Shown here piece by piece: positions 19,252-39,894 of a stretch of DNA of 64,000 bases; the stretch's first letter is position 1; each line of letters opens with the position of its first letter. The translations under genes were made by a program, and so were the position numbers. The stretch comes from a virus: the IMG/VR virus record IMGVR_UViG_3300037420_000837, positions 1 through 64,000 of that record; one strand, given 5' to 3'. Below the pieces are notes generated by a model. That model saw nothing but the letters and a program-made list of their open reading frames with translations, did no database searches and was not told the DNA's origin.

Positions 19252-20190
19252 GTGGCACAACAACAGCAAGAGAACATCGAGAAGGTACACACGAACAACT
19301 GGCGCAAGCTCGGGGAGATGTATGTGCCCACAGGGGATGTGGTGAAGCATATTCCGGCGGGGGTGTATACCAGTATGCTGCCTTACGGAGTGGGCCCATG
19401 CTTGGTGCCCCAGAAGCCGGTCAAGGATGTGCATCGCAGTATGCCGTCAGGGGTCACGAACAGGATTATTGAAGGCGTGGAGACGTGGCTGAAGCTGCGC
19501 GAGAAGTACACCACGCTGGGGATTCTCTACAAGAGGGGTGTGTTGGTGCATGGCGAGCCGGGGACAGGCAAGACGGTGACCTGCTATCAGATTGCCGATG
19601 CGTGTGTACAGAAGCACGATGCGGTGGTGTTCTCGGGACAGGACATGCACGCACGGTTCACGTTGATGAAGTTGCTCCGCAAGCAGTACCCCACGCGGTT
19701 GTTTGTCAACATCATGGAGGACCTTGAGGTGTTGCGCTATGCCACCTCGGATGACACGTTGTTGAGTGTGCTCGATGGCGCAGACCAAGTGGACGGGGTG
19801 ATTCATCTGGCCACGACCAATTACTTGAGTAAGCTGCCGCCAAGGTACATGAGCCGCCCGAGTCGGTTTGATGAGGTGCACGAGGTTGGAAAGCCGAGTG
19901 CGGATGCTCGTAGGGAGTATCTCAAGAGCTTCGGAGAACTGAGCGATGAGATGTTGGAGACGCTTACGACGGTCTCGGATGGCTTCACGCTCGCGTTCTT
20001 GAAGGAGCTGTTTATCAGTGTGGCTGTGATGAGACGCGGGGTCGATGAGACCGTGCAGAACCTCAAGGTCATGATTGAGAAAGGCAAGAAACAAGCGACT
20101 GACCAAGACTTCAAGAACAAGGCGAGCAAGCTCATGCAAGCCATGGAGAATGCGGTCTATGAGGTAGAGGAGAGCGTCGATGAAGCTTAG
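19252..20190 (+). CDS. AAA+ ATPase
   Basis: Walker A GEPGTGKT, Walker B hydrophobic-DE (VIHLATTN region), sensor region. Confidence 0.7.
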   Translation: MAQQQQENIEKVHTNNWRKLGEMYVPTGDVVKHIPAGVYTSMLPYGVGPCLVPQKPVKDVHRSMPSGVTNRIIEGVETWLKLREKYTTLGILYKRGVLVHGEPGTGKTVTCYQIADACVQKHDAVVFSGQDMHARFTLMKLLRKQYPTRLFVNIMEDLEVLRYATSDDTLLSVLDGADQVDGVIHLATTNYLSKLPPRYMSRPSRFDEVHEVGKPSADARREYLKSFGELSDEMLETLTTVSDGFTLAFLKELFISVAVMRRGVDETVQNLKVMIEKGKKQATDQDFKNKASKLMQAMENAVYEVEESVDEA

Positions 20191-20413
20191 TACGTGGATT
20201 TGGTTTGGCACAAAGATGTTGCTGCTTGTGCTGCTGGCGATGGTCATGCTGAACTATGCGTTCGGACTGATGAATCAGCCAGATACGGTTTTGTTCGCGT
20301 TGGGGCTGGGGTTGTTCATGGCAACCCCGCTCCTCGTGAGCAAGTTGGTTGAGTGGACTCTCAAGAGTCCTATCAAGAAAGAGGAAAGACATGAGAAAAC
20401 AGAAGCTGTTTAA
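20180..20413 (+). CDS. small membrane protein
   Basis: 77 aa, two TM helices; between AAA+ and SPFH genes. Confidence 0.35.
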   Translation: MKLSTWIWFGTKMLLLVLLAMVMLNYAFGLMNQPDTVLFALGLGLFMATPLLVSKLVEWTLKSPIKKEERHEKTEAV

Positions 20414-21320
20414 CTTTCTGGTGATGGTTGTTCTGCTGGTGGTGAGCGTGATGCTTACTGGCTGCGGAGCGACTCGTATCGGCCCCGGGCATGTGGGGTT
20501 GGAGGTCAAGCTGGCAGGCACGCAGCGCGGCGTGCAGGACATCCCGGTGCGTACCGGATGGGTGTTCTACAACCCGTTTGCCACGAGCATCTTGGAGTAT
20601 CCAACCTTCGTGCAGACCGCCAAGTGGACGGGCAGCAAGGAGAGCTCAGACGCGAATGAGGAGATGACCTTCAAGAGCAAGGAAGGCGTCATCATCAAGG
20701 CGGATGTGAGCTTGAGCTACTACATCCAACAGGACAAGGTGCCGCACTTCTACGTGAAGTATCGCTCCGATGACCTGAATCATTTCACGCATGGGATTCT
20801 GAGAAATATCGCCCGAGATGCGTTTAATGAGGTGGCTGCGAACTACGGCGTGGATGACATCAACGGCCCGAAGTTGAGCGACTTCTTACATGAGGTCAAG
20901 ACCAAGATAAACGAGCAAGTCACCAACGAAGGTGTGGTGATTGACCAGTTCGGGTTCTTGGAGACCCCACGGTTGCCTCAGAGTTATCAAGAGGCGATGC
21001 TGAACAAGCAGACCGCGATTCAGACGGCCCAGCAGAAAGAGAACGAGCTGCGGGCCACGCAAGCGGAGGCGGCCAAGCAGATAGCTGCTGCCGAAGGCGA
21101 GGCGAAAGCACGTGTTGCACGTGCGGAGGGTGAGGCGAAGGCGAATACCGTCTTGGCCAATAGCGTTACCGACAGGCTGTTGACCCTGAGGAAGTTGGAC
21201 ATTCAACAGCAAGCTGTTGACCGCTGGAACGGCTCAGTGCCCACGATACAGGGTGGGACAGGTAGTGGTTCCGGAGGGTTGAACATTGTCGTCCCGATGA
21301 ACCTGCAGAAGCAGGACTAA
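20391..21320 (+). CDS. SPFH/band-7 (stomatin/prohibitin/HflKC-like) membrane protein
   Basis: N-terminal TM helix, SPFH core and C-terminal AEAEA coiled-coil repeat (EGEAKARVARAEGEAKA); GAGGAA SD before ATG 20391. Confidence 0.65.
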   Translation: MRKQKLFNFLVMVVLLVVSVMLTGCGATRIGPGHVGLEVKLAGTQRGVQDIPVRTGWVFYNPFATSILEYPTFVQTAKWTGSKESSDANEEMTFKSKEGVIIKADVSLSYYIQQDKVPHFYVKYRSDDLNHFTHGILRNIARDAFNEVAANYGVDDINGPKLSDFLHEVKTKINEQVTNEGVVIDQFGFLETPRLPQSYQEAMLNKQTAIQTAQQKENELRATQAEAAKQIAAAEGEAKARVARAEGEAKANTVLANSVTDRLLTLRKLDIQQQAVDRWNGSVPTIQGGTGSGSGGLNIVVPMNLQKQD

Positions 21321-23033: not shown

Positions 23034-23151
23034 GCGAGTGGTGTAGTAGACGGATACTTCTTTGGATAAGAAACCAGCGACGGCCTCCGAAAGGTGGCTG
23101 GCAAGGTAGGGGGTTCAAATCCCCCGCTTCCGTTTGCGCATGTTCCCTCGC
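23034..23151 (+). ncRNA. structured RNA element, family copy B with tRNA T-arm-like module (candidate Y-RNA/YrlA-like)
   Basis: closing GCGAG/CTCGC; conserved 5' TGGTGTAGTAGACGGATACTTC and 3' CGTTTGCGCATGTTCC; perfect T-arm GGGGG-TTCAAAT-CCCCC at 23109-23125. Confidence 0.5.
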
Positions 23152-23204: not shown

Positions 23205-24545
23205 GTGATGAAAGTCGTCTCGTACAAAGGCGATATGTCGACGATGGCTCAGGTAGAGCCGGGGATGTCGATTGAGTTGTACCCGAGCAAGGAGCTTGCG
23301 CGGGTGGTGCATGTGGATGCGAGCCGGATGTTTCCGCGAGGGAAGCTGGTGAGCATGGATGTCTGGCAAGGCCAGAAGCTGAACTCGTGGCAGTGGAATG
23401 TCAGGGATTTTCCACCTGAGGCCCCGGTCAAGGTGCTCAACGGGAAGATGGTGGAACTTCTCCTTGAGCGAGTCGGTAAGCAGATGGCTGACCAGAACAG
23501 GGTGACCACAATTATCAATCATCTGGGCATGGGCGTGAGTTTGGGCACGGACCCAGAGGTCTTTGTACGCAAGGGAGATGGGAGTTTATTGCCTGCGTTT
23601 GAGTTTCTGGGGCCGAAGCAGGGGAGTAGTGGGTACGAGTCGCCCTTCTGGGATGGCTTTCAGGCGGAGTTTACTACCTACTCCGGAGGGTGTATCGACG
23701 GGCAGACCACCTCGTGCAGGGCAGGATTGATGGAGGTTCTGCGCAGGGCGCGGAATGTGGACCCCAAGGCCAAGCTGGTGCTGGAGCCGGTGATTGAGGT
23801 TCCTACCGAGACCCTGAAGAAGTACGACAAGAAGTTCACACAGTTTGGATGCAGTCCGAGCATGAATGTGCATGGACTGAGCACGGTGCTGCCGGATGAC
23901 CACACGGAGGTCACCATTCGGCCAGCAGGGTTTCATTTGCACTTCGGTAACCCGATGCTGCAGATTCCCTACCACGCACGCAATGTGGTGAGGGCCTTGG
24001 ATGTGCTTGTGGGGCTGCCGTTCGTGGCCTTGATGGAAGGAATTGATGACCCAAGACGGAGGGCGTTGTATGGACTTCCCGGAGAGTTCCGGATGCCAGC
24101 TCATGGACTTGAGTACCGAACCCTTAGCTCCGCAGGGCTGTGTCATCCTGCCATCTATCAACTTGCTTTTGAGCTGGGAAGAATCGCTTGCCGAGTGGGA
24201 ACGCGGGGAGTGCTTCCCGTGTTGTTCAAGTATGACCCCAAGGAAGTAGCGGAGATAATCACCCGCACGGATGCAGGAACAGCACGCAAGTTCATGGCCC
24301 AGCACAAAGAGGCCTACGAGAAATGCGTGACCTATCGGTTTCAGGGGATGTATCACGGGAGCCTTGAGAGCAACAAATTTTCGTTCTGGCGAGGCATTGA
24401 AGGGGGCGTGGGGGCCTTGGTGAAAGACCCTCATAACCTTGAAAGCAACTGGGACTTGGATAGGTCCCGCCACGACGCTATGAGGTGTTCGAGATGGTCG
24501 CAGTTGGCAGAAAGAGTGGCAAACAGCAAGCAGCCGGTCTCGTAG
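23205..24545 (+). CDS. amidoligase-like protein, paralog 1 (GS-like carboxylate-amine ligase family, putative)
   Basis: shares GTDPEVFV and HLHFG motifs with paralogs at 28920 and 34791 (GADPEFVL/GGHVHLG; GCDPEVVC/GGHVWLD). Confidence 0.45.
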   Translation: MMKVVSYKGDMSTMAQVEPGMSIELYPSKELARVVHVDASRMFPRGKLVSMDVWQGQKLNSWQWNVRDFPPEAPVKVLNGKMVELLLERVGKQMADQNRVTTIINHLGMGVSLGTDPEVFVRKGDGSLLPAFEFLGPKQGSSGYESPFWDGFQAEFTTYSGGCIDGQTTSCRAGLMEVLRRARNVDPKAKLVLEPVIEVPTETLKKYDKKFTQFGCSPSMNVHGLSTVLPDDHTEVTIRPAGFHLHFGNPMLQIPYHARNVVRALDVLVGLPFVALMEGIDDPRRRALYGLPGEFRMPAHGLEYRTLSSAGLCHPAIYQLAFELGRIACRVGTRGVLPVLFKYDPKEVAEIITRTDAGTARKFMAQHKEAYEKCVTYRFQGMYHGSLESNKFSFWRGIEGGVGALVKDPHNLESNWDLDRSRHDAMRCSRWSQLAERVANSKQPVS

Positions 24546-24844
24546 CTGGGACCCCAGAGGTTGTCAGGTGTCCGGCCTGTGCAGGACGGGGATTCCCGAC
24601 TCTCGTGCAGGCCAAGGTCATCGACCCGCCGTGTCAGGTGTGTCGAGGGCAAGGCGTGATTCCGCTGGAGATTTGTGCCTGCGGAAGGTGCGCGGCGATA
24701 GTTCATCCCAGCCTTGGGGTGAGCTATTGCGGGCAAGACAAGTGTGCCGAGCAGCGGATTGGAGAACCTGTCCAAGGTAATTCCGCTGACGACATAATGT
24801 ATCAATGGGCGGGAGCCCTGATGGGGGATTTCTCCATCAACTAG
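24485..24844 (+). CDS. DnaJ-type zinc-finger (CxxCxGxG repeats) protein
   Basis: CPACAGRG, CQVCRGQG, CACGRC motifs. Confidence 0.45.
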   Translation: MFEMVAVGRKSGKQQAAGLVAGTPEVVRCPACAGRGFPTLVQAKVIDPPCQVCRGQGVIPLEICACGRCAAIVHPSLGVSYCGQDKCAEQRIGEPVQGNSADDIMYQWAGALMGDFSIN

Positions 24845-24952
24845 CAAGTTTGTAAGGTTTCTCCCTGAGGAGTAACGGAACGGACGCACCCTGCGCAAGC
24901 CAATCGCAGGACTTCGAGGCTCTTAGGGCCTGAGGGTTGGAGTTTCGGCCTT

Positions 24953-25086
24953 CGGAAGACCTCCGGTGGTGTCTGTCAAAGGGACGTTGAGAACGTACAA
25001 AGCTTAGCCCCACTGTGGGCGGGGCATTGGGCTAGGTCTCGGACCTGAGGATACACATCTGTTCGCAGATTGATTGCCTTTCCGAG
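24953..25086 (+). ncRNA. structured RNA element, degenerate family copy E
   Basis: 5' CCGGTGGTGTCTGTC and 3' CGCAGATTGATTGCCTTTCC resemble family consensus; closing CGGAAG/CTTTCCG. Confidence 0.3.
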
Positions 25087-25233
25087 TCTAACTTAGTCTG
25101 AGGGCCCCCCGGATAAACAAGGCTGCTAAGGTGTCCGGTGGAGACGGACTGGAGGCAGGGCGGGATTTGGATACCGTTCTGCGATGCTCCGAAGGGGAGA
25201 AAGTTGTACAGGAAAGGGGCTTCGAGGTCTGGT

Positions 25234-25303
25234 GGGGCTGTAGCTCAGCGTTAGAGCACTCGATAATAATCGAGAGGTCGCCGGTTCAATTCCGGTCAGC
25301 CCA
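25234..25303 (+). tRNA. tRNA-like gene with canonical D- and T-arms but 6-nt anticodon loop (TAATAA) and G1-A72 mismatch; possibly pseudo-tRNA or tRNA-mimic
   Basis: GGGGCTG-TA-GCTCAGCGTTAGAGC-A-CTCGA-TAATAA-TCGAG-AGGTC-GCCGGTTCAATTCCGGT-CAGCCC-A; no encoded CCA. Confidence 0.5.
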
Positions 25304-25308
25304 TTGAG

Positions 25309-25333
25309 CATCAGACGGTAGAAGCCCCCTTAC
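25309..25333 (+). repeat. 25-nt motif copy immediately after tRNA-like gene
   Basis: CATCAGACGGTAGAAGCCCCCTTAC. Confidence 0.85.
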
Positions 25334-25354
25334 TGAATCATTCGGAGGGGATTC

Positions 25355-25677: not shown

Positions 25678-26022
25678 ATGTCGTTCAAACAGGTCGTAGT
25701 TATCAATTCGGGGGTGGGGATGCGCAAGGGCAAGGTCGCGGTCCAGTCGTGCCACGCCGTAGTGGGGGCAATCCTGAACACTCCGGAGGATACTCTAAAC
25801 CGGTGGTTAGGCGAAGGAATGCCCAAGGTGACCCTCAAGGTACAGTCAGCGAAGGAGCTGATTGACCTATTTGAACAGTGTCGCGGTGCGATGCTTAATG
25901 CGTATCTGGTGAAGGACGCGGGCAAGACGCAAGTCAAGCCCGGGACGGTCACGGCGCTGGCTATCGGCCCAGCCAAGGTTGAGGACATCGACAAGATTAC
26001 GGGAAAGCTGAAGCTGTTATGA
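25678..26022 (+). CDS. peptidyl-tRNA hydrolase, PTH2 family
   Basis: MSFKQVVVINS..GKVAVQSCHA...DAGKTQV..GTVTALAIGP...ITGKLKLL matches PTH2 core pattern. Confidence 0.65.
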   Translation: MSFKQVVVINSGVGMRKGKVAVQSCHAVVGAILNTPEDTLNRWLGEGMPKVTLKVQSAKELIDLFEQCRGAMLNAYLVKDAGKTQVKPGTVTALAIGPAKVEDIDKITGKLKLL

Positions 26023-26666
26023 CGAAGAAAGAGTTGGATGGGCTGAAAGAGCTGTTGGAGGCGGAGTGGATTCATTATGACGCCACTTACAACATGCTCT
26101 GGTGGGGTGCAGAGCCGACGAAGCGCACGAAGGAAGAAATCCGGGAGCTGAAGGGTGAGGGGTATGCGAATTACTTCAACGTCCCCGGACAGGGGTACTT
26201 GTACGAGAATGATGTTCGGGTTCAGTACAAGATAACCGCGAGGCAGCATTCAGCACGGCTTGCTCCCAGTGGCGGACTTTCGCAACTCCCGGGATGTTGT
26301 GGGGTGGGAGTAGTGAATACCGTTGAGAGCGTGTTGTCGGGTATCCCCAAGAAAGTCAAGGGCCCTTTCTTGAGGTATTTTATCGAACGAAGCGCTTATG
26401 ACTTGAACATCGTAGCGGTCACTTCTCGCCAGAAGGAAGAGAAAGCTGTTATCGAGGCTTCAGGGTGCTTTGAGTTGATTGCCGTAGGGAAATCGCGGAT
26501 GGGTAGCTATCCCATCTATCTCTACAAGTACAACCAGAAAGAACACAAAGGCTTTGAAAAGCTTCAGGAGAAAGTGAACAACTCTTCTCCGAAGGAGGCT
26601 CCTAAAAGTGAGCCAGTTAGGAAGGTGGCTCCGAAGCCGCTTCTCCGGAGGAGACAAGTAGGATGA
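26019..26666 (+). CDS. hypothetical protein
   Basis: 215 aa ORF, start overlaps PTH2 stop. Confidence 0.45.
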   Translation: MTKKELDGLKELLEAEWIHYDATYNMLWWGAEPTKRTKEEIRELKGEGYANYFNVPGQGYLYENDVRVQYKITARQHSARLAPSGGLSQLPGCCGVGVVNTVESVLSGIPKKVKGPFLRYFIERSAYDLNIVAVTSRQKEEKAVIEASGCFELIAVGKSRMGSYPIYLYKYNQKEHKGFEKLQEKVNNSSPKEAPKSEPVRKVAPKPLLRRRQVG

Positions 26667-26839
26667 TTTGGGTGTTTCGTGGAGTTGGGATGTTTATGCT
26701 GGTGGCGAGTCTGTGGGTACTGACTCTGCCCCCGCATTTCATCACGAACGGGCATTTCAATTTTATTGGGATGCTGTGTGACCTGCTCGCATTGGGAGCG
26801 GTCTATCTCTGGACACGTGTGTTGTTGAACACGTGGTAA
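26663..26839 (+). CDS. small membrane protein (59 aa)
   Basis: hydrophobic; below ORF-track cutoff. Confidence 0.3.
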   Translation: MIWVFRGVGMFMLVASLWVLTLPPHFITNGHFNFIGMLCDLLALGAVYLWTRVLLNTW

Positions 26840-27103: not shown

Positions 27104-27310
27104 ATGTGGAGGATGGTTCGGAGCCCCAAGGGGTTGATAGTCCTCGGGTTGTGTGTACTCAATGCGTGGGCGATTAACCGCGTGTTTGAGGTGGACTTCG
27201 AGTTCGACCCGGATGTGTGGTTGATATTGTTCGCCATCCTGTTTGGATTGGAGACTGTGTCTCTCTGGGGGCTCTACCATCTTCTGTTTTGGCTGTTGAG
27301 GGGTTTATGA
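27104..27310 (+). CDS. small membrane protein
   Basis: GAAAGGGAA SD then ATG; 68 aa, two TM. Confidence 0.4.
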   Translation: MWRMVRSPKGLIVLGLCVLNAWAINRVFEVDFEFDPDVWLILFAILFGLETVSLWGLYHLLFWLLRGL

Positions 27311-27720
27311 GCGAGGAAAAGAAAGAACAAGAAACACGTTATCGAGTGTTTGTCTACGGCACACTCAAGCGCGGAGGCAGGCTTCACGGGTGTATGGACA
27401 TGGAGGGGCCTAAGGGTGGCACCACGCGTTTCATCGACGAGTACACGCTCGGAGATGTCGAGATGTATAACCTTGGCTGGTACCCCGGGATTAAACAGAG
27501 AGCCGGTGGCAAGGTGCACGGCGAGCTCTACAGCGTGACTGAGGATGTACTCAAACGCTTGGATAGGGTTGAGGGAGCGCCGTTTCTCTACTCCCGCAAG
27601 GTCTTCAACGTGCCGTATAAGGGTGTGAAGATGGACATTCATACTTATGTCTTCAACGGCGAGGTCAACCCGAAGAACTTGATTGTTGATGGGGTGTGGA
27701 GGCCAGACCATGCTCGGTAA
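27307..27720 (+). CDS. gamma-glutamyl cyclotransferase (GGCT/AIG2-like)
   Basis: VFVYGTLKRG...GWYPG...GELY...LDRVEG...Y.R motifs. Confidence 0.6.
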   Translation: MSEEKKEQETRYRVFVYGTLKRGGRLHGCMDMEGPKGGTTRFIDEYTLGDVEMYNLGWYPGIKQRAGGKVHGELYSVTEDVLKRLDRVEGAPFLYSRKVFNVPYKGVKMDIHTYVFNGEVNPKNLIVDGVWRPDHAR

Positions 27721-28300
27721 AATACCGATGTGGTATTTCAAGGTGGTCAATCGTCCTTACGGGGCGCGGATGCCCAAGCGTGAGACGAAGGTGATGGACA
27801 TCGCGACAAAGTCGATTGTACCTATTCGGAGCCTCCATCAAACTCCGATTGGTTTTGTCCAGCCGCAAGGTATGGAGTCCCGCAAGAGCCACCAGCATGA
27901 ACGCCTACGGAGGCGTGGCAAAAACAAAAACATCGAGACCGGGAATCTGGGGCTGAGCGAATATCAGTTCTGGGTGGGCGTGAAAGGAGCTTCCACGCAG
28001 TTTGCGAGATGTCGAGCTTGCAATCAGGATACCTTCGGACCCAACGAGCGCAAGATGCACCACACGCTCTCTGGGCGGGAGGACCTTAGTTGTGCAGGTA
28101 AGTGCGTTATTATCTGTAACTTACTGGCCAAGGACAAGCAGTGCATCATCTGCGGGGACGGTGTGCACAAGAAGCGCTGGGGAGTCCCGATGTGTGCGCG
28201 CAAGGAGTGTGTCGAGAGCTTTATGTTTTCGCTTAGCCCGATGCCTTCGATGTGGATTCACGCGAGAGCCTTGGGGGCTCAACGAGGTTGGCAGAAATGA
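27710..28300 (+). CDS. Cys-rich protein
   Basis: several CxxC pairs (CRACNQ, CIICGDGVHKKRWGVPMCARKEC). Confidence 0.4.
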   Translation: MLGKIPMWYFKVVNRPYGARMPKRETKVMDIATKSIVPIRSLHQTPIGFVQPQGMESRKSHQHERLRRRGKNKNIETGNLGLSEYQFWVGVKGASTQFARCRACNQDTFGPNERKMHHTLSGREDLSCAGKCVIICNLLAKDKQCIICGDGVHKKRWGVPMCARKECVESFMFSLSPMPSMWIHARALGAQRGWQK

Positions 28301-28944
28301 AGAAGCATACCATTGACGGGATTTTCAAGAAGGGTCGGGGAGGGGTGGCTGCAAACGTGACAGGCACCATGCCAGCCCCGTTTCCGGGCAAATATCCCAC
28401 ACGGGTGTGCTTCAGTATCAAGGTGCACGGCAGACCCGAACGGATTGAGTACATCGGCAAGCCGAATGTGCAGATGATGTTGCGGTTCCATCGGTTTGTC
28501 GAGAGGGCGAGGTTGGATGGGTTTTTCTACTACGAGTTCGACCGCAAGAATATCGTAGCCCGGATGACGATGAGTTCTCGGGCCAGTTGCGAGAGGCTTC
28601 GGAGATACTATCATCCGTGGGCAGGGGTCTATAGCACCTACGAGGACTTCCTCAAGCCTTTCTATCGCAAGAAGGTTGGGGGAGCCACCTGCTACAGTCA
28701 ACACAAAGTCAACAAGATTTCGCAGGTCAATGAGTTCAAGGAGTGGCTGGTGAGCCAAGGCTTGGCTCCGGGGCATATCCTAACCAAGAAGCCTGCTCCG
28801 AAGAAACCGAAGACTATTGAGTGGCGCTACAACTGCGGGAATTGTGGGCATTCCTACCAGAGATTGAGTAAGCCCGAAAGTCTGGTAGTTCGTTGTAGCC
28901 TCTGTGGAGCATTCACAAGTTGGACGGAAAAGAAATCTCTATGA
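28297..28944 (+). CDS. hypothetical protein with C-terminal zinc ribbon
   Basis: CGNCGH...CSLCG at C-terminus. Confidence 0.4.
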   Translation: MKKHTIDGIFKKGRGGVAANVTGTMPAPFPGKYPTRVCFSIKVHGRPERIEYIGKPNVQMMLRFHRFVERARLDGFFYYEFDRKNIVARMTMSSRASCERLRRYYHPWAGVYSTYEDFLKPFYRKKVGGATCYSQHKVNKISQVNEFKEWLVSQGLAPGHILTKKPAPKKPKTIEWRYNCGNCGHSYQRLSKPESLVVRCSLCGAFTSWTEKKSL

Positions 28945-30455
28945 TTTGCACCGAAGAACGGAAAAAGTTTTTCACTGAGGCTGTGGGCAAGGGCTGGCGG
29001 GAGTTGAGCGAGGTTCCGGTGAACTTCCTCCCGGAGGTGCCCGAGCATGTCAAGCTGAAGTGGCTGAAGATTCTAAAGACCAGCAGGGTACCGAAGTATC
29101 CGGTGAACCCTCGACTGGTCAATCATTTTACTCTCGGGGCCGACCCCGAGTTTGTGTTGTATGACCCAACGAGCGGGTCCAGAATGGACGGGAATCGGTT
29201 GGGGCTGCGGACTGGCATGGCCTATGGGGTGGATTCCAATGGTCGTTTGCTGGAAATCAGACCCTGTCCCAGTCGGTTTGCCTTAGAGGTTCTGGCTAGC
29301 ACGCTGGTGACTCTTAGATGGTTCGCTCTGACGGTGCCTCAAGCTCTTGATTTCCAGTGGCGTTCGGGGGCATTTGTCTTGCGAGATGGTCTGGGAGGGC
29401 ACGTGCATCTGGGTAGGAAGACCGCGAACCGTAAGGTTGAAGTGGAAGCTCTGGACAGGGTGTTCCACCTATTGAACGGTTTAGGGGTGTTCCCGCAAGA
29501 TGAGTGCCAAGCACGGAGGGCAGGCGACCAGTTCAATCAGCGGTACGGACTAGACGGAGACATACGACTCCAAAAGCACGGGTATGAGTATCGGACCTTG
29601 CCAAGTTGGCTGGATTCCCCGTGGACGGCATATCTTTGCCTTGTATTGTCCAAGCTGGTCGCCCATGACCCTGCGATTTTTCACAACCTGCACAAGGGTA
29701 CGGTCTCGAAAGGGGGACAGACGAGGATTCTCAATCTGTTCCGAAAGTATGCAGGGCTGGATGACGATGCGGCGATTGCCGCGAGTGTACTGGAAAGACA
29801 TGGGTTGCCGAGCTTTCAGGGTGGCGACTTCAAGACTCGCTGGGGGTTGACCTACGCGAAGGATGCCCTGAAGGATAGGAATATCCAGATTCCGGGCAAC
29901 ATCAAGCCGAGTGCTGAGGAGATGCGGGAGCTGTTTTGTAGCTTGATGAACAATACTCCCTTGCACGCCACCATGCCTAAGGCTTACTGGCCGACACATC
30001 TGCCGAGTGGGTATCAGACGGTGTTGAGCTACACGGATACCACGAGGGTTGCGGGGCTGGGGGAAGTGCTAGCTGAGATGGTGGTCGAGTCGAAGCACGC
30101 CTTTCAATTCACGCACTCTGAGAGCATCACGGATTATTTGAGGGTGAGCTTGGATGTGGTCAAGAGCTTGCCGAAGAACTGGCGACAGCTTTGCGCGAAG
30201 GCGAGTGGCTTGCCGGAAGAGAGGTTCCGGGCCTATGACCAAGGCAAGAACGCGATTTTTATCGGGCGAGACGCGAGAACAAGCACGCACTTGAGAGCCG
30301 TGCGGAGGGCCTTGTTGAGTGAGGCTTTCCCGATTTGGAAGTTTGACGAGGTGAAGTCTGAGAGTTATTCGTGGTGGGTGGAGAAGAATACCCGCGAAAA
30401 GAAAGAGAAGCCTCGGAAGTTTGCCTCGAAGGTAATCTACGAGCGAGGCAAGTAG
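28920..30455 (+). CDS. amidoligase-like protein, paralog 2
   Basis: LGADPEFVLYD, LLEIRPCP, LGGHVHLGRK motifs shared with 23205 and 34791. Confidence 0.5.
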   Translation: MDGKEISMICTEERKKFFTEAVGKGWRELSEVPVNFLPEVPEHVKLKWLKILKTSRVPKYPVNPRLVNHFTLGADPEFVLYDPTSGSRMDGNRLGLRTGMAYGVDSNGRLLEIRPCPSRFALEVLASTLVTLRWFALTVPQALDFQWRSGAFVLRDGLGGHVHLGRKTANRKVEVEALDRVFHLLNGLGVFPQDECQARRAGDQFNQRYGLDGDIRLQKHGYEYRTLPSWLDSPWTAYLCLVLSKLVAHDPAIFHNLHKGTVSKGGQTRILNLFRKYAGLDDDAAIAASVLERHGLPSFQGGDFKTRWGLTYAKDALKDRNIQIPGNIKPSAEEMRELFCSLMNNTPLHATMPKAYWPTHLPSGYQTVLSYTDTTRVAGLGEVLAEMVVESKHAFQFTHSESITDYLRVSLDVVKSLPKNWRQLCAKASGLPEERFRAYDQGKNAIFIGRDARTSTHLRAVRRALLSEAFPIWKFDEVKSESYSWWVEKNTREKKEKPRKFASKVIYERGK

Positions 30456-30465
30456 GAGGACGAGA

Positions 30466-31497
30466 ATGTGTGGAATCGGTGGGTTTTACCGTTATGGTGA
30501 CACGCCAATAGACATTGACCAAATCAAGGCGCTGTTGTGTCAGTTGGAGCGCCGAGGCAATCACGCAACCGGGATTGCGTTGCAGGACGAGAAGGGGGAA
30601 GTGTTTGTGTGTAAGGCCCCGACTCCTGCGTGGAACTTTGCCGCAGGCAAGGAGTTTGAGGTCTTCATGACGAAGTACTTCAACGAGCGCACGAGGATTG
30701 CGCTGCTCCATACGCGGGCTGCGACTATCGGGAACCCGAATAAGAACGAAAACAATCACCCGATGTTTGCCGGGAAGGCCGCGATTGTCCACAACGGGAG
30801 TATCAACAACCACTCCTACTGGTTCAGCCAGAACAAAGACTGGGAGCGCAAGGCCGAGACAGACAGCGATGTCATTCGGGCGGTGGTGGATGAGCTAGGG
30901 ATTACTCCGGAGGCCATCAGGTATTTGAGTCGGTTCTCGGGAAGTGCGGCCATCATGGCGGTCAGTCCGGAGTATCCGGGGAAGCTGTTGGTAGGCCGGT
31001 CAGGCAAGCCTCTCACGATGGGCTGGAACGAGAAGGAGCAGATGCTCGCGTTCGCCTCTGAGAAGGAGATGCTCTACCACGCGACCAAGCCGCTCAAGGT
31101 GGCGCTGGGGTTTGTCTTTGCTGGCAATCGGAATGATTACATGTACTTCACCATCCCGGCAGACACGATGTACATCGTGGGCGAGAAGGGTAAGGAGTTC
31201 CACGATAACCTGCGGATTGCCAGCTATACCACAGGGGAGATGGTCTATCGGTGCAATGAGACTTACCACGAGACCAAGAAGCGCTTTGACCGGGAGACAC
31301 CTCCGCCCAAGCGAGAAGTAGTGACGGTCGATGAAGGGCCGTTGTATGTGAACTCCAAGCTGGACGTGGTGAGATGTCGGAATACCAAGTGCAACAACCT
31401 CATGGAGCTGGACGAGAAGCTCAAGAAGGAGCCACTCTGGGAGTTGGCTTGTGACAAGTGTGGAACCTACCTGATGGAGGAGCCGAAGAAGGCTTAG
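30466..31497 (+). CDS. class-II (Ntn) glutamine amidotransferase domain protein
   Basis: MCGIGGF N-terminal nucleophile Cys2; AGGAGGA SD. Confidence 0.65.
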   Translation: MCGIGGFYRYGDTPIDIDQIKALLCQLERRGNHATGIALQDEKGEVFVCKAPTPAWNFAAGKEFEVFMTKYFNERTRIALLHTRAATIGNPNKNENNHPMFAGKAAIVHNGSINNHSYWFSQNKDWERKAETDSDVIRAVVDELGITPEAIRYLSRFSGSAAIMAVSPEYPGKLLVGRSGKPLTMGWNEKEQMLAFASEKEMLYHATKPLKVALGFVFAGNRNDYMYFTIPADTMYIVGEKGKEFHDNLRIASYTTGEMVYRCNETYHETKKRFDRETPPPKREVVTVDEGPLYVNSKLDVVRCRNTKCNNLMELDEKLKKEPLWELACDKCGTYLMEEPKKA

Positions 31498-31761
31498 GGG
31501 ATGAAGAAGAAGCATCGTGAGAAGGGTTTCACGGCGTTCGAGTGGGTGGGGCTGCCGTGTAAGCCGGTGCCGAAAACGAAACGAGAGAAACGTGAAAAAG
31601 CAGACGATTCCCGGCAAGGGACTGGGAAAGGTGTTCACTCTGTGCCTTATCGGGAGCAGGGTAAGTAAGCATAAGAGACGCAGGAGTTTCTGTGTCAGGT
31701 GTGGGCATTGTTTCAAGTGTGGCTGGGCACACCCTCACACGGGAAGGAACGGGCACGTAGG

Positions 31762-32214
31762 ATGAAAGAGCTTGTTGAGAAGTACAAGGAACAAATCACG
31801 GCCATTCTCGGGCACAACCGATGGCGGTTGGGAAATGTAGACTACAAAGTCAACTACAGCGACAAGCTTGACCTCGGGAAGTATGCCTTGTGGGTTCGGG
31901 TGAACTCAGTTGACCCGACAGAGACCAAGGTCGCAAGCTTTGAGCTGCACCCGATGATTAACTGCTGCGGGATTTGTGTGTCTTCGAGAGCTGAAGTGCA
32001 CAAGGATTTTCAAGGTAACGGTCTCGGGACGCTTCTCAACTCTTTTCGGGTGGATGTTGCACGCTATCTCGGGTACGGAGTCCTGCTTTGCACGGACGTG
32101 TCAACCAACGAACCTCAGCGCAAGATTCTTAAAGCCAACGGGTGGAAGGACGTGTATCAGTTCTTAAACCCGCGAACGAAGAACAGGGTATTCATCTCGG
32201 TAATAAATCTATGA
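31762..32214 (+). CDS. GNAT-fold N-acetyltransferase-like protein
   Basis: VHKDFQGNGLGTLL acetyl-CoA-binding-like motif. Confidence 0.5.
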   Translation: MKELVEKYKEQITAILGHNRWRLGNVDYKVNYSDKLDLGKYALWVRVNSVDPTETKVASFELHPMINCCGICVSSRAEVHKDFQGNGLGTLLNSFRVDVARYLGYGVLLCTDVSTNEPQRKILKANGWKDVYQFLNPRTKNRVFISVINL

Positions 32215-33044
32215 TTCGACTGGTAGTCGCAAAAGGCAGCAGACCCACGGGAAACACTCTCTCAAACCTGCTGAGAACCGAACACAACCTCCAGCTCGGA
32301 GAAGCTGGGCGAGGAGTCGTGAGTTATGGAGTTCCATACGGAGGAAATCTCCCAGCCCTCAACGCAAACGCAGGACGACTGGATAAGTTGGAACAAGGCC
32401 TGCGCTTGGCATCTGCTGGGGTTAGCGTTGTTCCACATCTCGATTCTGCTGCTGCTCTCCGCCACAATGGGGTTCTCTTGGCTCGCAAGCGCAATCATGT
32501 TGGCGGTCGGGACATTATGCTGGTACTTGAGCCTGAGGACATCCCGCACCGACTCCGAGCAGGAGCCCAGTTCTTTACTCCTTATATCCGAAGCCAAGCC
32601 GAGTATCGAGTCTGGACCTACCGAGGACAACATCTGGGAACTTATCAGAAGGTCCTAGCCCATCCGGAGAGATACAAGAAAGTGGGGCGGAACTATGACA
32701 ACGGCTTTGCGTTCCAGCTTGTCCGAGAGGCGCAGATACCACGAGCGGCGGTGGAACTGGCGAGTCAAGCCGTTGAGGCTTTGGCTCTCGATTTCGGCGC
32801 GGTCGATATCTTACACGGACGGGACGGAAGGTTCTACGTGTTGGAAGTTAACACTGCACCGGGGGTCGAAGGGGAAGGCAGGCAGGTCATTCAAGCGCTT
32901 GCTCGTAAAATCGCTCGCTGGGAAGAGTTAGGGTATCCGGCTAGGAATGGAAGCCCGGAGGCTGCGGCTAAGAAGGCTGCCAAGGAGAAGAGGCCCCTAA
33001 AGGACTTAGCAGGAGAGCGGAGGACACAACTCCGGAGGTGGTGA
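32211..33044 (+). CDS. ATP-grasp ligase (RimK-like)
   Basis: GAVDILHGRDGRFYVLEVNTAPG ATP-grasp C-terminal signature; ATG overlaps upstream TGA. Confidence 0.65.
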   Translation: MIRLVVAKGSRPTGNTLSNLLRTEHNLQLGEAGRGVVSYGVPYGGNLPALNANAGRLDKLEQGLRLASAGVSVVPHLDSAAALRHNGVLLARKRNHVGGRDIMLVLEPEDIPHRLRAGAQFFTPYIRSQAEYRVWTYRGQHLGTYQKVLAHPERYKKVGRNYDNGFAFQLVREAQIPRAAVELASQAVEALALDFGAVDILHGRDGRFYVLEVNTAPGVEGEGRQVIQALARKIARWEELGYPARNGSPEAAAKKAAKEKRPLKDLAGERRTQLRRW

Positions 33045-33047
33045 GAG

Positions 33048-33686
33048 TTGAGTACTAAAGTTCGCATGATTTACCGAGACGCCCGGGGAGGCATAACCTC
33101 CGGGCGTTTTGCTGTGAATGCCATTAGGACGGAAGCATCGAGGAATGGCTTGATGCTGCCGGATGCTTTGGCGAGGACAGCGCCTGTCTGGAGACAGATG
33201 CAGTGGCTTGTAGAGCACATGCCAGACAGAGGGGTGATTGTCACTCCAGCGTTGAAGATTTGGCGCGAGGCTCGGAGGATTCCGGGCTATCGCAGTGAGT
33301 ATATCCAAGGGTGTAAGCGGAGTGGACTGAGCCAGAAGCTCCGGACAGCTGAGGAACAACAGAGATACATTGAAGCCCGAGAGCGCAGGGACAGGGTGAG
33401 ATTGGGGCTGAGGTTTGAGACTCCGGCTCCTAGGTTGCGAATTGACCCCTTGAATGGGCGGGTGGTGCTTGGGAATACCCGTAGGGCGCAACCGCCAAGG
33501 CAAGTGCAAACGGTATTGGAGCGTAACGCCGAGAGAGCAAGACGTGAGCAAGTTCGGTTTACAACCCCTGATGCTGCTGCGACGCTAACTGCCGAGCAAA
33601 TCAGGCGGATGCAAATTGTGCAAGACGCGTTGAATACCGCAACAGGTTCTCCAACATGGACAGTCCCCAGAACCGAGGAATTATAA
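33048..33686 (+). CDS. hypothetical basic protein
   Basis: 212 aa, Arg-rich. Confidence 0.4.
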   Translation: MSTKVRMIYRDARGGITSGRFAVNAIRTEASRNGLMLPDALARTAPVWRQMQWLVEHMPDRGVIVTPALKIWREARRIPGYRSEYIQGCKRSGLSQKLRTAEEQQRYIEARERRDRVRLGLRFETPAPRLRIDPLNGRVVLGNTRRAQPPRQVQTVLERNAERARREQVRFTTPDAAATLTAEQIRRMQIVQDALNTATGSPTWTVPRTEEL

Positions 33687-34271
33687 ATGGAAACCCCGGA
33701 GGCATATATCACACAGGTGGTACGGAGGATAACCCCTCAAGGTCCCATTTGGAAGTGTAAGGTTCACGGGGATATTCCGGAAGCTTACATGCTCAGGGGT
33801 GGAGTGGTGGTGCCGTATTGTGGACAGTGCCTGCTCCAGACCCCTGAGGTGAGCTTTGGCAAGGTGGTGTTAAAGAAACGCTGGAGACCGTTTGGAGGTA
33901 GCTCCCGAGGCTACATGTTTCGGGACGGCAAATACCACTGCAGACAGTGTTTCGAGGCCTTTGAGTACATCACCGCTTACGACAACCATCTCGAAGGATG
34001 TGTCGGCAGAGGAATCGGGAGCTTTCGAGTCAACGACAGACGCAGGGTTTCAGCTGACCCAAGCACAGCAAGCCGAATCACCTCGCAAGAAGGTGACCAC
34101 TACTGCACCCTCAGAAACTGCTGGAAGGTCTCCTGCCTGTTCCCGTGTGCAAGCTGCAACCAACACTTTTGCATTGCTCACATGGCTCATTATGCAGTTG
34201 ACACTCCGCTCACAAATCTCTGCGAAGTCTGCGCCAGTGTTGAAGAGTACGCAACCAAGGTCACCCCATGA
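33687..34271 (+). CDS. Cys-rich zinc-binding protein (possible anti-sigma/regulator)
   Basis: multiple CxxC; stop overlaps sigma-factor start. Confidence 0.4.
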   Translation: METPEAYITQVVRRITPQGPIWKCKVHGDIPEAYMLRGGVVVPYCGQCLLQTPEVSFGKVVLKKRWRPFGGSSRGYMFRDGKYHCRQCFEAFEYITAYDNHLEGCVGRGIGSFRVNDRRRVSADPSTASRITSQEGDHYCTLRNCWKVSCLFPCASCNQHFCIAHMAHYAVDTPLTNLCEVCASVEEYATKVTP

Positions 34272-34837
34272 GTGAACAGAATAAGGCGTTTGAAACATGG
34301 AAGCAAGCCAAGGGAACTGAAACCGAGAAAGCAGCCGAGGAGAGGCTGATTAAAGCCCTGAGGAGATATGCCACAAAAATCTGTTGGAACATTCTCAAAG
34401 AAGCCAATCAAGACGTTGTCTCAGCTTCGGTCTTTCAAGCCCTTCAATTCGCTGATGGATTCCGAGGAGACGGAAAATTCTCTACGTGGTTCTATTCTGT
34501 CGTTAAACGGAATTGTCTCTCTGCCATTAGGAAGCGTAAGCGCAGGGCTGAGATTGGAATTGATGACCTGTCTGGGGCGCAGGTCAAACAGCTACCTGTA
34601 CGAGAGGTATCAGACGACGCCATCGCCCTCCGAGAGGTTACCGGAAGGCTGGCTGCTCACGAGCGTGAGTTTCTTGAGTTGAAGGCACACGGGGCGAGCG
34701 ACGAGGAGATTGCTCGGGCGTTGAACATCAAAGAAGGGACTGTGAGGGTGCGGTGGAGTAGGCTTCGGAAGAAGTTGCGAGGGGCGTTGAATGGCGAGGA
34801 AATCAAACTTTCTGAACGCGTTTCTGGTGGGATGTGA
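34268..34837 (+). CDS. sigma-70 family (ECF-like) sigma factor
   Basis: region 2 (FSTWFYSVVKRNCLSAIRKRKR) and region 4 HTH (EEIARALNIKEGTVRVRWSRLRKKLR). Confidence 0.7.
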   Translation: MSEQNKAFETWKQAKGTETEKAAEERLIKALRRYATKICWNILKEANQDVVSASVFQALQFADGFRGDGKFSTWFYSVVKRNCLSAIRKRKRRAEIGIDDLSGAQVKQLPVREVSDDAIALREVTGRLAAHEREFLELKAHGASDEEIARALNIKEGTVRVRWSRLRKKLRGALNGEEIKLSERVSGGM

Positions 34838-35558
34838 CCCAGAGGTCGTGTGTGTGGATGCAGCGGGGAATCAGGTGCATGTGGACAGGACTATCACCAA
34901 GGATGGGCAGATAGGCTGGGACCACGGCGGAAGGGTGATGGAGTTTAGACCGACCCCGCACAAGGGTACCTACACCTTGGTCAAGGATATCAAGGAGCTG
35001 ATTACAGGAGCTCCGGCGGGCATCCGCAAGTATCGTTGGTTGTCGGGAGCTTATGTCAAGTTCCCCAACGAAGCAGGAGAGAGTCTCGGCGGCCATGTCT
35101 GGTTGGACTTGAACCCGAACTCGGCTATCCAGTCCACCAGAGTCAAGGCGTTAGACCGACTGACCGAGAGCCTTGAGAGACTGGATATCCTGCCTCGGCA
35201 GGAGTGCATTGTCAGGCGGAGAGGAAAGTACGGGAAGTTTGCAGACGTGCGCACGGTGCAGGGGGACAGGCCGAGGTTTGAGTATCGCACGATGGCGAGT
35301 TGGATGTATAACCCCGCGACTGCGTTCCTGTGCCTGACGGCTGCCAAGATGGCTGCGTATGACCCCGAAGGGGCAGCTAAAGCTCTCAAGCCTGAAGAGG
35401 CGAGCTGGAAGGGTTTGACGGAGTGGTTGGAGGGTTATGCCGAAGACTGCAACGTAGCGAGGTTGAGCGAGAAAGTATTTCCAAAAGGTCTCAAGAAAGT
35501 TCAGTACCACCCGGATGTGGATGTCAAAGAGGCGTGGGCTGGGAAACTGGGGTTCTAG
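34791..35558 (+). CDS. amidoligase-like protein, paralog 3 (short)
   Basis: VGCDPEVVCVD, VMEFRPTP, LGGHVWLDLN motifs. Confidence 0.5.
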   Translation: MARKSNFLNAFLVGCDPEVVCVDAAGNQVHVDRTITKDGQIGWDHGGRVMEFRPTPHKGTYTLVKDIKELITGAPAGIRKYRWLSGAYVKFPNEAGESLGGHVWLDLNPNSAIQSTRVKALDRLTESLERLDILPRQECIVRRRGKYGKFADVRTVQGDRPRFEYRTMASWMYNPATAFLCLTAAKMAAYDPEGAAKALKPEEASWKGLTEWLEGYAEDCNVARLSEKVFPKGLKKVQYHPDVDVKEAWAGKLGF

Positions 35559-38459: not shown

Positions 38460-38487
38460 CCCCCTCTTCGGAGGGGGATTTTTATTT
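38460..38487 (+). terminator. rho-independent terminator or 5'-UTR stabilising hairpin
   Basis: CCCCCTC-TTCG-GAGGGGG then ATTTTTATTT; sits between motif copy and rsr SD. Confidence 0.55.
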
Positions 38488-38499
38488 GGAGGAGAAACT

Positions 38500-39894
38500 A
38501 TGGCGAGTATAAACAAACAAGTGCCTAGCAATCTGCCTAAGACGTACGAAGGTACGCCTGCGCAGCGGCTGGACACTGAGCAGACCTTGCAGCGGTTGGT
38601 CTTAGCCAACATGCTGTGGGAGGACCAGTTTTACATCGACGGCAAGGCGACGGCTGGGATGATTTCGGAGTTGGTTCCGAAGGTCAGCCCGAAGTTCGTG
38701 GCGGCTCTGGCGGTCTATGCCCGGGAGAAGATGAAGCTCCGGCATGTGCCCCTGTTGCTTGTGCGAGAGATGGCCCGGGCCTCGACGGAGCATAAGCTCC
38801 TCGTGGCTGACACCCTCTCGAAGGTTGTCCAACGTCCGGATGAGATGACTGAGTTTCTGGCCATCTACTGGAAGGAAAAGAAACAGCCTCTCAGTGCGCA
38901 GGTCAAGAAGGGGCTGGCGCAGGCTTTCATGAAGTTTGACGAGTTCCAGCTGAGTCGGTATGACAAGGACGGAGCGGTCAAGCTGCGGGACGTGATGTTC
39001 CTTACCCACCCCAAGCCCAAGGGCAAGTTCGAGACGGTCTACAAGAAGATTGCGGAGCGGAAGACCCAGACCGTCGACACGTGGGAGACCAACCTCAGCG
39101 CTGGCAAGGACAAGAAAGAATCCTTCGAGCGCCTGATGAGCGAGGGCAAGATGGGCGCTCTGGCCGTGCTGCGCAACCTGCGGAACATGCAGGAGGCGGG
39201 CGTGGAGCTGGACAAGATGCGCGAGGCCATCAAGACCATGAAGGTCGAGAGGGTCCTCCCGTTCCGGTTCATTGCGGCCTCACGATATGCTCCGAAGCTG
39301 GAGCCTGAGCTTGAAGAGGCGATGTTTAAGTGCCTCGGAGATGCGCCGAAGTTGAAGGGGCGCACGGCTCTGGTGATTGATACCAGCCCGAGCATGTGGA
39401 TGGCGAACATCTCCATGAAGTCTGAGATGAATCGGGCAGACGCTGCGGCGGCTCTGGCCATGCTCCTGCGGGAGATTTGCGAGAGTTGCAACATCTACAC
39501 GTTCAACCACGAGGCCAAGGCGATTCCGGCACGGCGAGGGTTTGCGCTGCGGGACGCCATCTTTCAGACCAAAGGGGATTACTCCTGCGGCGGTCTGGGC
39601 GTGCACATGGCCAACAAGGACGGCTACGACCGCATTGTCGTGCTGACGGACGGGCAGTGGCATTACTCGAACTATGAGGCCAACTCCGTAGGTACACGGC
39701 ACTCGATGGAGAACTCGGGACACGCGGGCGTCTGTCCGAAGCCCTTGACTCCACTGGCCTACATGCTCAACGTAGCGGCTTACAGGAACGGCGTAGGTTC
39801 CGGAAGCTGGGTCACCATCGACGGATGGTCTGAAGCGGTTGTGGATTACATCCGTGCGTGCGAGGAGGGCTTCGATGTTGAGGCACGTGGATGA
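38500..39894 (+). CDS. rsr: Ro60/Rsr-like protein (TROVE module plus C-terminal vWA domain)
   Basis: N-terminal TYEGTPAQRLDTEQTLQRLVLANMLWEDQFYI (TROVE-like start), helical repeat region, C-terminal vWA with MIDAS LVIDTSPSMWM and DRIVVLTDGQ; GGAGG SD. Confidence 0.6.
   Translation: MASINKQVPSNLPKTYEGTPAQRLDTEQTLQRLVLANMLWEDQFYIDGKATAGMISELVPKVSPKFVAALAVYAREKMKLRHVPLLLVREMARASTEHKLLVADTLSKVVQRPDEMTEFLAIYWKEKKQPLSAQVKKGLAQAFMKFDEFQLSRYDKDGAVKLRDVMFLTHPKPKGKFETVYKKIAERKTQTVDTWETNLSAGKDKKESFERLMSEGKMGALAVLRNLRNMQEAGVELDKMREAIKTMKVERVLPFRFIAASRYAPKLEPELEEAMFKCLGDAPKLKGRTALVIDTSPSMWMANISMKSEMNRADAAAALAMLLREICESCNIYTFNHEAKAIPARRGFALRDAIFQTKGDYSCGGLGVHMANKDGYDRIVVLTDGQWHYSNYEANSVGTRHSMENSGHAGVCPKPLTPLAYMLNVAAYRNGVGSGSWVTIDGWSEAVVDYIRACEEGFDVEARG

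Follow-up and report, generated by a model that had tools for sequence, protein, structure and literature searches.

A cassette in which amidoligase genes stand together with genes for a class-II glutamine amidotransferase, an ATP-grasp ligase and an AIG2-type protein is known from phiEco32, 7-11, LUZ24 and PaP3-like phages, and later papers credit the recognition of this gene neighbourhood to Iyer et al. 2009 (PMC10580990, PMC11706807, PMC3890496). The same gene set has been tabulated in the same order, beside the replication genes, for the LUZ24-like phage UFV-P2 (PMC3890496), and the cassette has been mentioned for phage TC6 (PMC6209634). As far as the citing papers convey it, the cassette goes back to the computational prediction of 2009, and no experimental work on its product, target or phenotype was found in the literature searched, in agreement with an earlier note on the DNA described here, according to which no product or target is known. 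This DNA, referred to as the window, is a stretch of 64,000 nucleotides (nt) corresponding to positions 1 to 64,000 of the IMG/VR virus record IMGVR_UViG_3300037420_000837, and amounts to approximately a single phage genome. The block at positions 27104–35558 is a divergent version of the cassette named above, and the likeness to the phage peptide-ligation systems of Iyer, Aravind and colleagues that the earlier note had proposed is borne out by the neighbourhood described in the later papers.

In Salmonella phage 7-11, a PF14395 ligase (gp105) is followed by gp104, a PF12224 protein (gp103), the amidotransferase (gp102), two small open reading frames (ORFs) and the ATP-grasp ligase (gp099), and further on by a gamma-glutamylamine cyclotransferase (GGACT, gp086) and then by the primase/helicase and the polymerase. 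The window shares with such phiEco32-type cassettes a PF14395 ligase, a class-II amidotransferase directly 3' of a long ligase, a homologous ATP-grasp protein and GGACT, as well as the gene order and the position next to the replication genes, since the cassette lies on the same strand as the primase and polymerase within the early/replication arm. It differs in that PF12224 is lacking and the slot 5' of the amidotransferase, held by PF12224 in 7-11 (gp103), in Klebsiella phage Asterion and in L021, is occupied by a clade-specific PF14395 ligase of 504 aa (ligL); L021 is a 97-kb phage contig from a sample series in which the window phage occurs too, and it carries a canonical cassette including PF12224. 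Further differences are a third PF14395 paralog (ligS) paired with a sigma factor, two conserved Cys-rich proteins (cys196 and zr215) coupled to ligL, a GNAT inside the block, and an amidotransferase of 343 aa, as against 486–649 aa in UFV-P2 and 7-11. The replacement of PF12224 by ligL, the ligS–sigma pair and the two partner proteins coupled to ligL are what is new in this clade.

The block comprises 13 same-strand ORFs that are mostly translationally coupled, with eight overlaps (six of them of the 4-nt ATGA type) and four gaps of 0–10 nt at their junctions, the sole larger gap inside the block being one of 93 nt just 5' of the GNAT gene. The amidotransferase, GNAT, ATP-grasp, cyclotransferase and ECF-like (extracytoplasmic function) sigma factor that had been read from the letters were all recovered in place (Table 1). 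Conservation was assessed in 15 related metagenomic loci by searching their ORFs with the window proteins and family profiles. With ligL alone, a pattern scan of IMG/VR gave nothing, and the related loci were obtained with the ligS family alignment; they were examined within 10 kb on either side of ligS, and absences are to be read with care. The genes for ligL, the amidotransferase and the ATP-grasp protein are present in all 15 loci (as is ligS, by construction), cys196 is present in 14 and zr215 in 12, and lig3, the third ligase of the window, was found wherever the 10-kb flank extended far enough. A sigma factor gene lies directly 5' of ligS in 12/15, while GNAT (8/15, at varying positions) and GGACT (5/15) are accessory components. 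As the order ligL, amidotransferase, ATP-grasp, then sigma factor and ligS, is repeated in the 15 related loci, the co-location of these genes is not due to chance.

Homologs of lig3 (by tblastn) and of the ATP-grasp protein occur in 302 and 310 cultured phage records, respectively, with near-identical host distributions (Pseudomonas, about 118; Escherichia, about 92; further hosts being Vibrio, Aeromonas, Proteus and Salmonella). No homolog of ligL or ligS was detected by tblastn in 50,697 cultured phage records, and a nucleotide search of the block against the same number of phage records gave no match. Metagenomic contigs from JGI and Logan samples, as long as 59 kb, carry identical copies of the amidotransferase gene, an identical copy of ligS is recorded on contigs of up to 70.5 kb, and members of the ligS family abound in metagenomes, where their contigs typically measure 62–70 kb. 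This variant of the cassette belongs to an uncultured clade of phages of about 60–70 kb.

Table 1. Features of the cassette and of its surroundings in the window (E-values follow the family names).
Feature	Position	Strand	Basis or remark
lig3, COOH-NH2 ligase type 2, 445 aa	23208-24545 (ORF from 23205)	+	PF14395 1e-12; PHROG 3815 1.3e-24
ligL, COOH-NH2 ligase type 2, 504 aa	28941-30455 (ORF from 28920)	+	PF14395 6.7e-19
ligS, minimal COOH-NH2 ligase type 2, 255 aa, catalytic core only	34791-35558	+	PF14395 1e-20
Class-II (Ntn) glutamine amidotransferase, stand-alone domain	30466-31497	+	GATase_6 9.9e-17; N-terminus MCGIGG
RimK/Ddl-like ATP-grasp amino-acid or peptide ligase, 277 aa	32211-33044 (ORF from 32142)	+	RimK 1.8e-5; PHROG 2599 3.1e-25
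Gamma-glutamyl(amine) cyclotransferase, AIG2/GGACT	27307-27720	+	PF06094 3.8e-22; PHROG 2520 1.2e-16
GNAT-fold acyltransferase, 150 aa	31762-32214	+	Family profile; motif A FQGNGLGTLL
cys196, basic (pI 10), 9 Cys	27710-28300	+	Clade-specific conserved partner, always 5' of ligL
zr215, basic, 215 aa, C-terminal zinc ribbon	28297-28944	+	Clade-specific conserved partner
ECF-type sigma factor	34268-34837	+	Sigma70_r2 1.9e-8 and r4_2 1.7e-7 only; PHROG 1740 6.3e-17
Cys-rich protein, 116 aa, 9 Cys	24494-24844	+	Directly 3' of lig3; co-conserved with lig3
g212, pI 11.5	33048-33686	+	Poorly conserved, 3 loci
cys194, 14 Cys	33687-34271	+	Poorly conserved, no related locus
Small hydrophobic ORFs	26663-26839; 27104-27310	+ (27104-27310)	5' of GGACT gene; not conserved in related loci
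JAB metallopeptidase	44409-44906		Prok-JAB 9.8e-10; intact JAMM motif HxH...SxxD
UDG-PolA fusion (DNA polymerase A, N-terminal UDG-superfamily domain)	44908-47364		Directly 3' of JAB
MazZ-type N-terminal domain protein, 108 aa	50609-50935	+	PF18909 8.7e-14; end of replication arm
SU10 (Kuravirus)-like portal	1539-3524	-	PF23899 1.3e-26
Large terminase	8867-10378	-	Virion/packaging gene

The three ligases are putative ATP-dependent carboxylate-amine ligases, as judged from conserved acidic, histidine and arginine invariants. The proposal that they are paralogs was confirmed, as all of them match PF14395 (48.3, 68.5 and 74.5 bits, with a Pfam cut-off of 25 bits) and share with 7-11 gp105 and the Asterion enzyme the invariants DPE, D, E, H, R, YG, R and EYR; since the family invariants are kept in all three, they look catalytically competent. 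Their placement in Amidoligase_2 did not hold, as PF12224 has no match among the window ORFs scanned with Pfam and is absent throughout the window clade. lig3 (likely true start at 23208) is the paralog nearest to the canonical phage enzyme of the 7-11 gp105/phiEco32 type (phmmer, 1e-16 with 7-11 gp105 and 3e-18 with the Asterion enzyme). In ligL (likely true start at 28941), the PF14395 domain covers residues 72–250 and is flanked by extensions of about 70 aa at the N-terminus and about 250 aa at the C-terminus; its family numbers 219 cluster representatives (clustering at 50% identity) at E ≤ 1e-30, most of them full length. That ligL might be a diverged PF12224 protein was considered and rejected at the BLASTP level, as no significant similarity was found to 7-11 gp103 or to the Amidoligase_2 protein of L021, and ligL is therefore not detectably a diverged member of that family. 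BLASTP of ligS against 7-11 gp105 likewise gave no significant similarity. A chromosomal PF14395 protein is encoded in Brevibacillus invocatus (NZ_RHHR01000019.1, 9458–10768 of the extracted locus; E 4.3e-94, the Pfam model being matched over its full length), with cotE, a spore-coat gene, on one side and mutS on the other, which suggests a cellular, possibly spore-coat-related, role of PF14395 in Firmicutes.

Because the ligS family profile has no sequence-level relative in the PDB, the structure of ligS was predicted from a 37-sequence alignment (predicted local distance difference test, pLDDT, 95.9; predicted template modelling score, pTM, 0.93). The model matches the folds of YbdK (15.6), plant gamma-glutamylcysteine ligase (GCL, 13.9), Dop (13.9), PafA (13.6), GshAB (12.7) and glutamine synthetases (GS, 10–12), and is predicted to contain the ATP- and metal-binding active-site barrel of the GS/GCL superfamily. 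Among predicted viral structures, its top match is a 'COOH.NH2 ligase-type 2' from Salinivibrio phage CW02, and many phage 'amidoligases' come next. The ligases differ from the known members of this superfamily (YbdK/GCS2, GCL, GS, PafA/Dop) in sharing 10–14% identity with GS and GCL and in having no sequence-level match to solved structures, and neither the beta-grasp domain at the N-terminus of GS nor the domain with which PafA binds Pup is present in ligS.

The amidotransferase gene begins 10 nt 3' of ligL. Its product is similar to the glutaminase domain of GlmS (3.2e-10; a longer GlmS match, 4amv, begins at residue 2), with the motifs HTR, HNG and ETD aligned and conserved, which in GlmS hold the glutamine-binding residues Arg73, Asn98-Gly99 and Asp123. 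The enzyme keeps the residues for binding L-glutamine or a gamma-glutamyl group, and its C-terminal tail carries CxxC...CxxC. The ATP-grasp gene (likely true start at 32211) overlaps the GNAT stop codon through an ATGA, and the nearest solved structures of its product, including the EVNTAPG segment, are DdlB (4.6e-6) and RimK (4e-5) in the PDB; phmmer relates it to 7-11 gp099 (3e-12) and the Asterion protein (3e-17), and it is closely related to the ATP-grasp protein of L021 (8e-69). On six contigs with an identical amidotransferase gene (L003–L008), the automatic gene calls split the ATP-grasp gene, so that an alternative-frame ORF of 110 aa or a minus-strand ORF of 78 aa is called over its N-terminal half and just the C-terminal 120–175 aa are labelled RimK; full-length relatives back the 277-aa reading, and automatic annotation therefore under-reports this enzyme. 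In the table of ATP-grasp hits, the record OP650935.1 ('Poriferisphaera phage ZRK32', published as a 'Planctomycetes chronic phage') sits among Pseudomonas LUZ24/PaP3-like phages with similar identity and query coverage, and its relation to Pseudomonas phages may deserve a check.

The GGACT protein carries the motifs YGTLKRGG and GELY, and its profile also matches 7-11 gp086 (4.5e-5). The GNAT (likely true start at 31762) gave no match in a single-sequence Pfam scan, while a profile built from eight members of its family had 40 solved GNATs as its sole matches (best, YncA, 3dr6, 1.3e-4), with the alignment covering motif A and the following strands, and its homologs have weak precomputed matches to PF00583. 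Support for the GNAT assignment is moderate because of the negative single-sequence scan.

Two non-enzymatic proteins, cys196 and zr215, are basic, Cys-rich and translationally coupled to ligL, the cys196 ORF overlapping the cyclotransferase stop codon by 11 nt. cys196 has no match in Pfam, PHROG or PADLOC and nothing credible in the PDB. zr215 contains the invariant N-terminal motif PFPGxYPTR...YxGKP...EFD, and its structure model, of moderate quality, has no significant match to a ubiquitin-like or any other solved fold. The 116-aa Cys-rich protein encoded next to lig3 shows a weak match to DnaJ_CXXCXGXG (7e-4, under the Pfam cut-off), and its homologs adjoin lig3 in nine related loci. g212 and cys194 have no family matches, and their junctions with neighbouring genes are gaps of 0–3 nt or overlaps. 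A 55-aa ORF after the amidotransferase gene (31501–31668) was weighed as a candidate carrier of the LysW or Pup type and discarded, being basic, unconserved and without an acidic C-terminus. The sigma factor, which had been counted among the gene set, is indeed conserved beside ligS, but it is a transcription factor and shows no sign of an enzymatic link to the other proteins. phiEco32 also has its own ECF sigma factor, and a phage-encoded factor of this type together with the SU10-like portal suggests, from protein similarity, that the window clade is distantly akin to phiEco32-like podophages. No cassette protein matched a defence system in PADLOC.

Four ATP-dependent amide-forming enzymes of two folds are predicted to be encoded here, and on balance the cassette would specify a multi-enzyme machine for ATP-dependent amide-bond formation that follows a gamma-glutamyl build-and-trim logic. 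The chemistry, namely amide ligation through an acyl-phosphate with building and trimming of gamma-glutamyl groups, is well supported. To our knowledge, every characterised member of the GS/GCL/PafA fold activates the gamma-carboxyl group of glutamate, and lig3, ligL and ligS would each activate a carboxylate, by this analogy most likely that gamma-carboxyl, as an acyl-phosphate before coupling it with an amine. The RimK/Ddl-like ATP-grasp protein would add a further amino acid, while the amidotransferase may either feed ammonia to the adjacent ligL for amidation or hydrolyse a gamma-glutamyl amide. Where present, GGACT would split off a gamma-glutamyl group in the form of 5-oxoproline, and the GNAT would N-acylate an amine; the order of the steps is one that we infer. 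Installing, extending and trimming a gamma-glutamyl group is the most economical scheme, because enzymes of the GS fold activate glutamate and because the amidotransferase and GGACT act on gamma-glutamyl amides whose alpha-amino group is free.

The same combination of enzyme classes is used in the pathways of butirosin (BtrJ, ATP-grasp; BtrG, AIG2-like), ergothioneine (EgtA, GCL-like; EgtC, an amidohydrolase resembling class-II amidotransferases) and putrescine (PuuA/PuuD), where a ligase of the GS/GCL fold or of the ATP-grasp type adds a gamma-glutamyl amide and an amidotransferase-like hydrolase or an AIG2-like cyclotransferase takes it off. The window differs from these pathways in having no acyl carrier protein, pyridoxal phosphate enzymes, sulfoxide synthase or dehydrogenases, and the likeness is one of logic, with no claim of orthology. 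Linked ligases of different folds often carry out successive ligations (Burroughs et al., PMC4431377), and the sequential ligation by three paralogs suggested in the earlier note is a reasonable inference.

A peptide or protein acceptor is somewhat more likely than a free small molecule, a weak lean that follows from the long extensions of ligL and lig3, from the two conserved non-enzymatic proteins coupled to ligL, and from the absence of tailoring or export genes, none for small molecules being found in the block by Pfam scans. In that case, the role of acceptor or scaffold would fall to cys196 and zr215. The stronger version, in which the three ligases form an assembly line that modifies a dedicated phage protein (cys196 or zr215) with a gamma-glutamyl or amidated peptide adduct, is rather unlikely; if true, the phage would have a protein-conjugation system of its own, without relation to ubiquitin or Pup tags, with the amidotransferase and GGACT as its editing or removal enzymes.

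Several observations weigh against the gamma-glutamyl build-and-trim scheme and its proposed acceptors. The literature searched contains no biochemistry for any PF14395 protein, and GGACT and GNAT are missing from many of the related loci in the flanks examined, so that the 'trim' step is not obligatory or depends on a gene located elsewhere. The search for a carrier of the Pup, LysW or ubiquitin type was negative. Cultured phages lack cys196 and zr215 in their canonical cassettes; these two proteins therefore cannot be a universal acceptor, and their significance is weakened further because the window genome is generally rich in CxxC proteins.

It is quite unlikely that the cassette instead serves the hypermodification of DNA or nucleotides, with a base or its precursor decorated by an amino-acid-derived group as a protection against restriction. 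The cassette adjoins the replication module here as in 7-11, Asterion and UFV-P2 (PMC3890496), genes for thymidine hypermodification are found in viral metagenomes together with amidoligase and glutamine-amidotransferase domains (Lee et al., PMC8989533), the basic Cys-rich cys196 and zr215 are compatible with nucleic-acid binding, and a MazZ-like dATP/dGTP diphosphohydrolase domain is encoded at the end of the replication arm. Against this, Pfam searches of about 87 window ORFs revealed no dUMP/dCMP hydroxymethylase, 5-HMUDK kinase, aGPT-Pplase, TET/JBP, DpdA or PurZ, and nothing points to a Z-genome, as PurZ was not found. We know of no report of modified DNA in the cultured carriers LUZ24, PaP3 and phiEco32, which also counts against this explanation.

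A modification of the host envelope that blocks superinfection, such as amidation or extension of the peptidoglycan stem peptide, is decidedly improbable as well. The amidation of iso-glutamate in peptidoglycan by MurT/GatD follows the same logic of an amidotransferase combined with a ligase, which counts in favour of this role, and D-Ala-D-Ala ligase is the top solved relative of the ATP-grasp protein. The suggestion was made for phiEco32, according to papers that credit it to Iyer et al. 2009 (PMC10580990, PMC11706807), and the adjacency of the Brevibacillus homolog to cotE also fits. The two small hydrophobic ORFs upstream of the GGACT gene would be in keeping with an envelope role, but they are unconserved in the related loci; moreover, no signal peptide or membrane anchor is evident in the sequences of the block enzymes, and no Mur-ligase, transpeptidase or flippase partner and no membrane or export component accompany them.

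Very little probability is given to the cassette being a set of auxiliary metabolic genes that enhance the host's metabolism of nitrogen, glutamine or glutathione, which is how the same set (an amidotransferase, an amidoligase, a 'glutathione synthase' and a gamma-glutamylcyclotransferase) has been read for Phage-ZRK32 (PMC10945688). The fold relatives of the ligases do include glutamine synthetase and gamma-glutamylcysteine ligase, but the low identity to both marks phage-specific families and not host-derived copies, ligS is a bare catalytic core, and the cassette sits with the replication genes in 7-11, Asterion and UFV-P2 (PMC3890496); phage-specificity of the families and placement with replication genes thus disfavour this explanation. 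The paper on Phage-ZRK32 gives no growth or metabolite data that link individual genes to the effect (PMC10945688).

The JAB protein that the earlier note had added to the set is a genuine metallopeptidase with its motif intact, but it is not part of the cassette, because it lies 9 kb away in the replication module and occurs in 1/15 related loci. It weakly resembles the JAB models of PADLOC defence systems that include E1-E2 proteins (E 7e-5), and it could have a role in replication-associated proteolysis or in counter-defence; a SprT-like protease is encoded near the equivalent position in two of the related loci (L009, 19744–19968; L010, 15095–15430). Although this intact peptidase could act as the deconjugating enzyme of a pupylation-like or ubiquitin-like protein tagging system, which is the stronger reading of the earlier note, such a system is highly improbable, as there is no Pup-like small ORF (acidic, disordered, with a C-terminal Gln/Glu) between 22 kb and 38 kb, the small ORFs there being hydrophobic or basic and Cys-rich, zr215 matches no ubiquitin-like fold, family searches found no E1- or E2-like gene, and the position of the rarely conserved JAB gene is taken by the SprT-like protease in those two loci.

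The cassette is set in a genome with minus-strand virion and packaging genes at both ends and a plus-strand arm from about 12 kb to about 51 kb that contains regulatory genes, genes of unknown function and replication genes, those downstream of the cassette encoding PD-(D/E)XK, AAA_24, DUF669, UDG-PolA and DUF3987 proteins. As the cassette sits between the left part of the plus-strand arm and the replication genes, its expression probably goes along with that of the early or middle genes. A scan for consensus promoters and terminators gave counts at chance level, with no excess of terminators within the block, and the terminator-like hairpin with the clearest T tract is located 3' of the block, at 38460. 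Between the replication arm and the virion genes, a tyrosine recombinase/integrase is encoded on the minus strand (50963–51796; PF00589, 3.8e-29), and the phage may be temperate, to judge from this gene. The virion arm includes a giant ORF of 2571 aa (52292–60007, minus strand), which has no PDB relative by sequence.

An AAA ATPase and an SPFH/Band-7 protein are encoded at 19252–21320 (plus strand), about 2 kb 5' of lig3, and in L021 an SPFH gene (9028–9834) is flanked by GGACT and the PF14395 ligase; SPFH proteins may thus be loosely associated with the cassette. A PTH2-type peptidyl-tRNA hydrolase (25678–26022, plus strand; PF01981, 8.5e-37) is encoded between lig3 and the main block, and none was found in the flanks of the related loci. 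Inside a non-coding stretch of about 500 nt (24845–25354), a tRNA-like gene (25234–25304, plus strand; Rfam tRNA, 50.7 bits) has an anticodon loop that is abnormal (TAATAAT, position 33 being A) and is called 'tRNA-???' by ARAGORN. The window also encodes a Ro60/TROVE protein (38500–39894), and the two could represent a tRNA mimic of the Y-RNA or YrlA type and its Ro partner. In the 190-nt gap 5' of lig3, a hairpin resembling a T-arm (GGGGGTTCAAATCCCCC, 23109–23125, plus strand), which neither ARAGORN nor Rfam calls a tRNA, may represent a piece of a tRNA or a tRNA-like element of another kind.

The block of the window is thus a recognised phage cassette in a new variant and not a new kind of system. 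In its canonical form, this cassette is present in about 300 sequenced cultured phages, including therapy-relevant phages of Pseudomonas (LUZ24/PaP3-like) and E. coli (phiEco32-like), and these cultured carriers remain a better experimental entry than the window phage; the window alone does not reveal the product. What the window shows is that the cassette has a greater age and plasticity than the cultured set implies. Extra paralogs and dedicated partners can be added to it. The window also defines the minimal core more sharply and offers candidate protein partners. The product, if solved, would explain a common and conserved function of phages.

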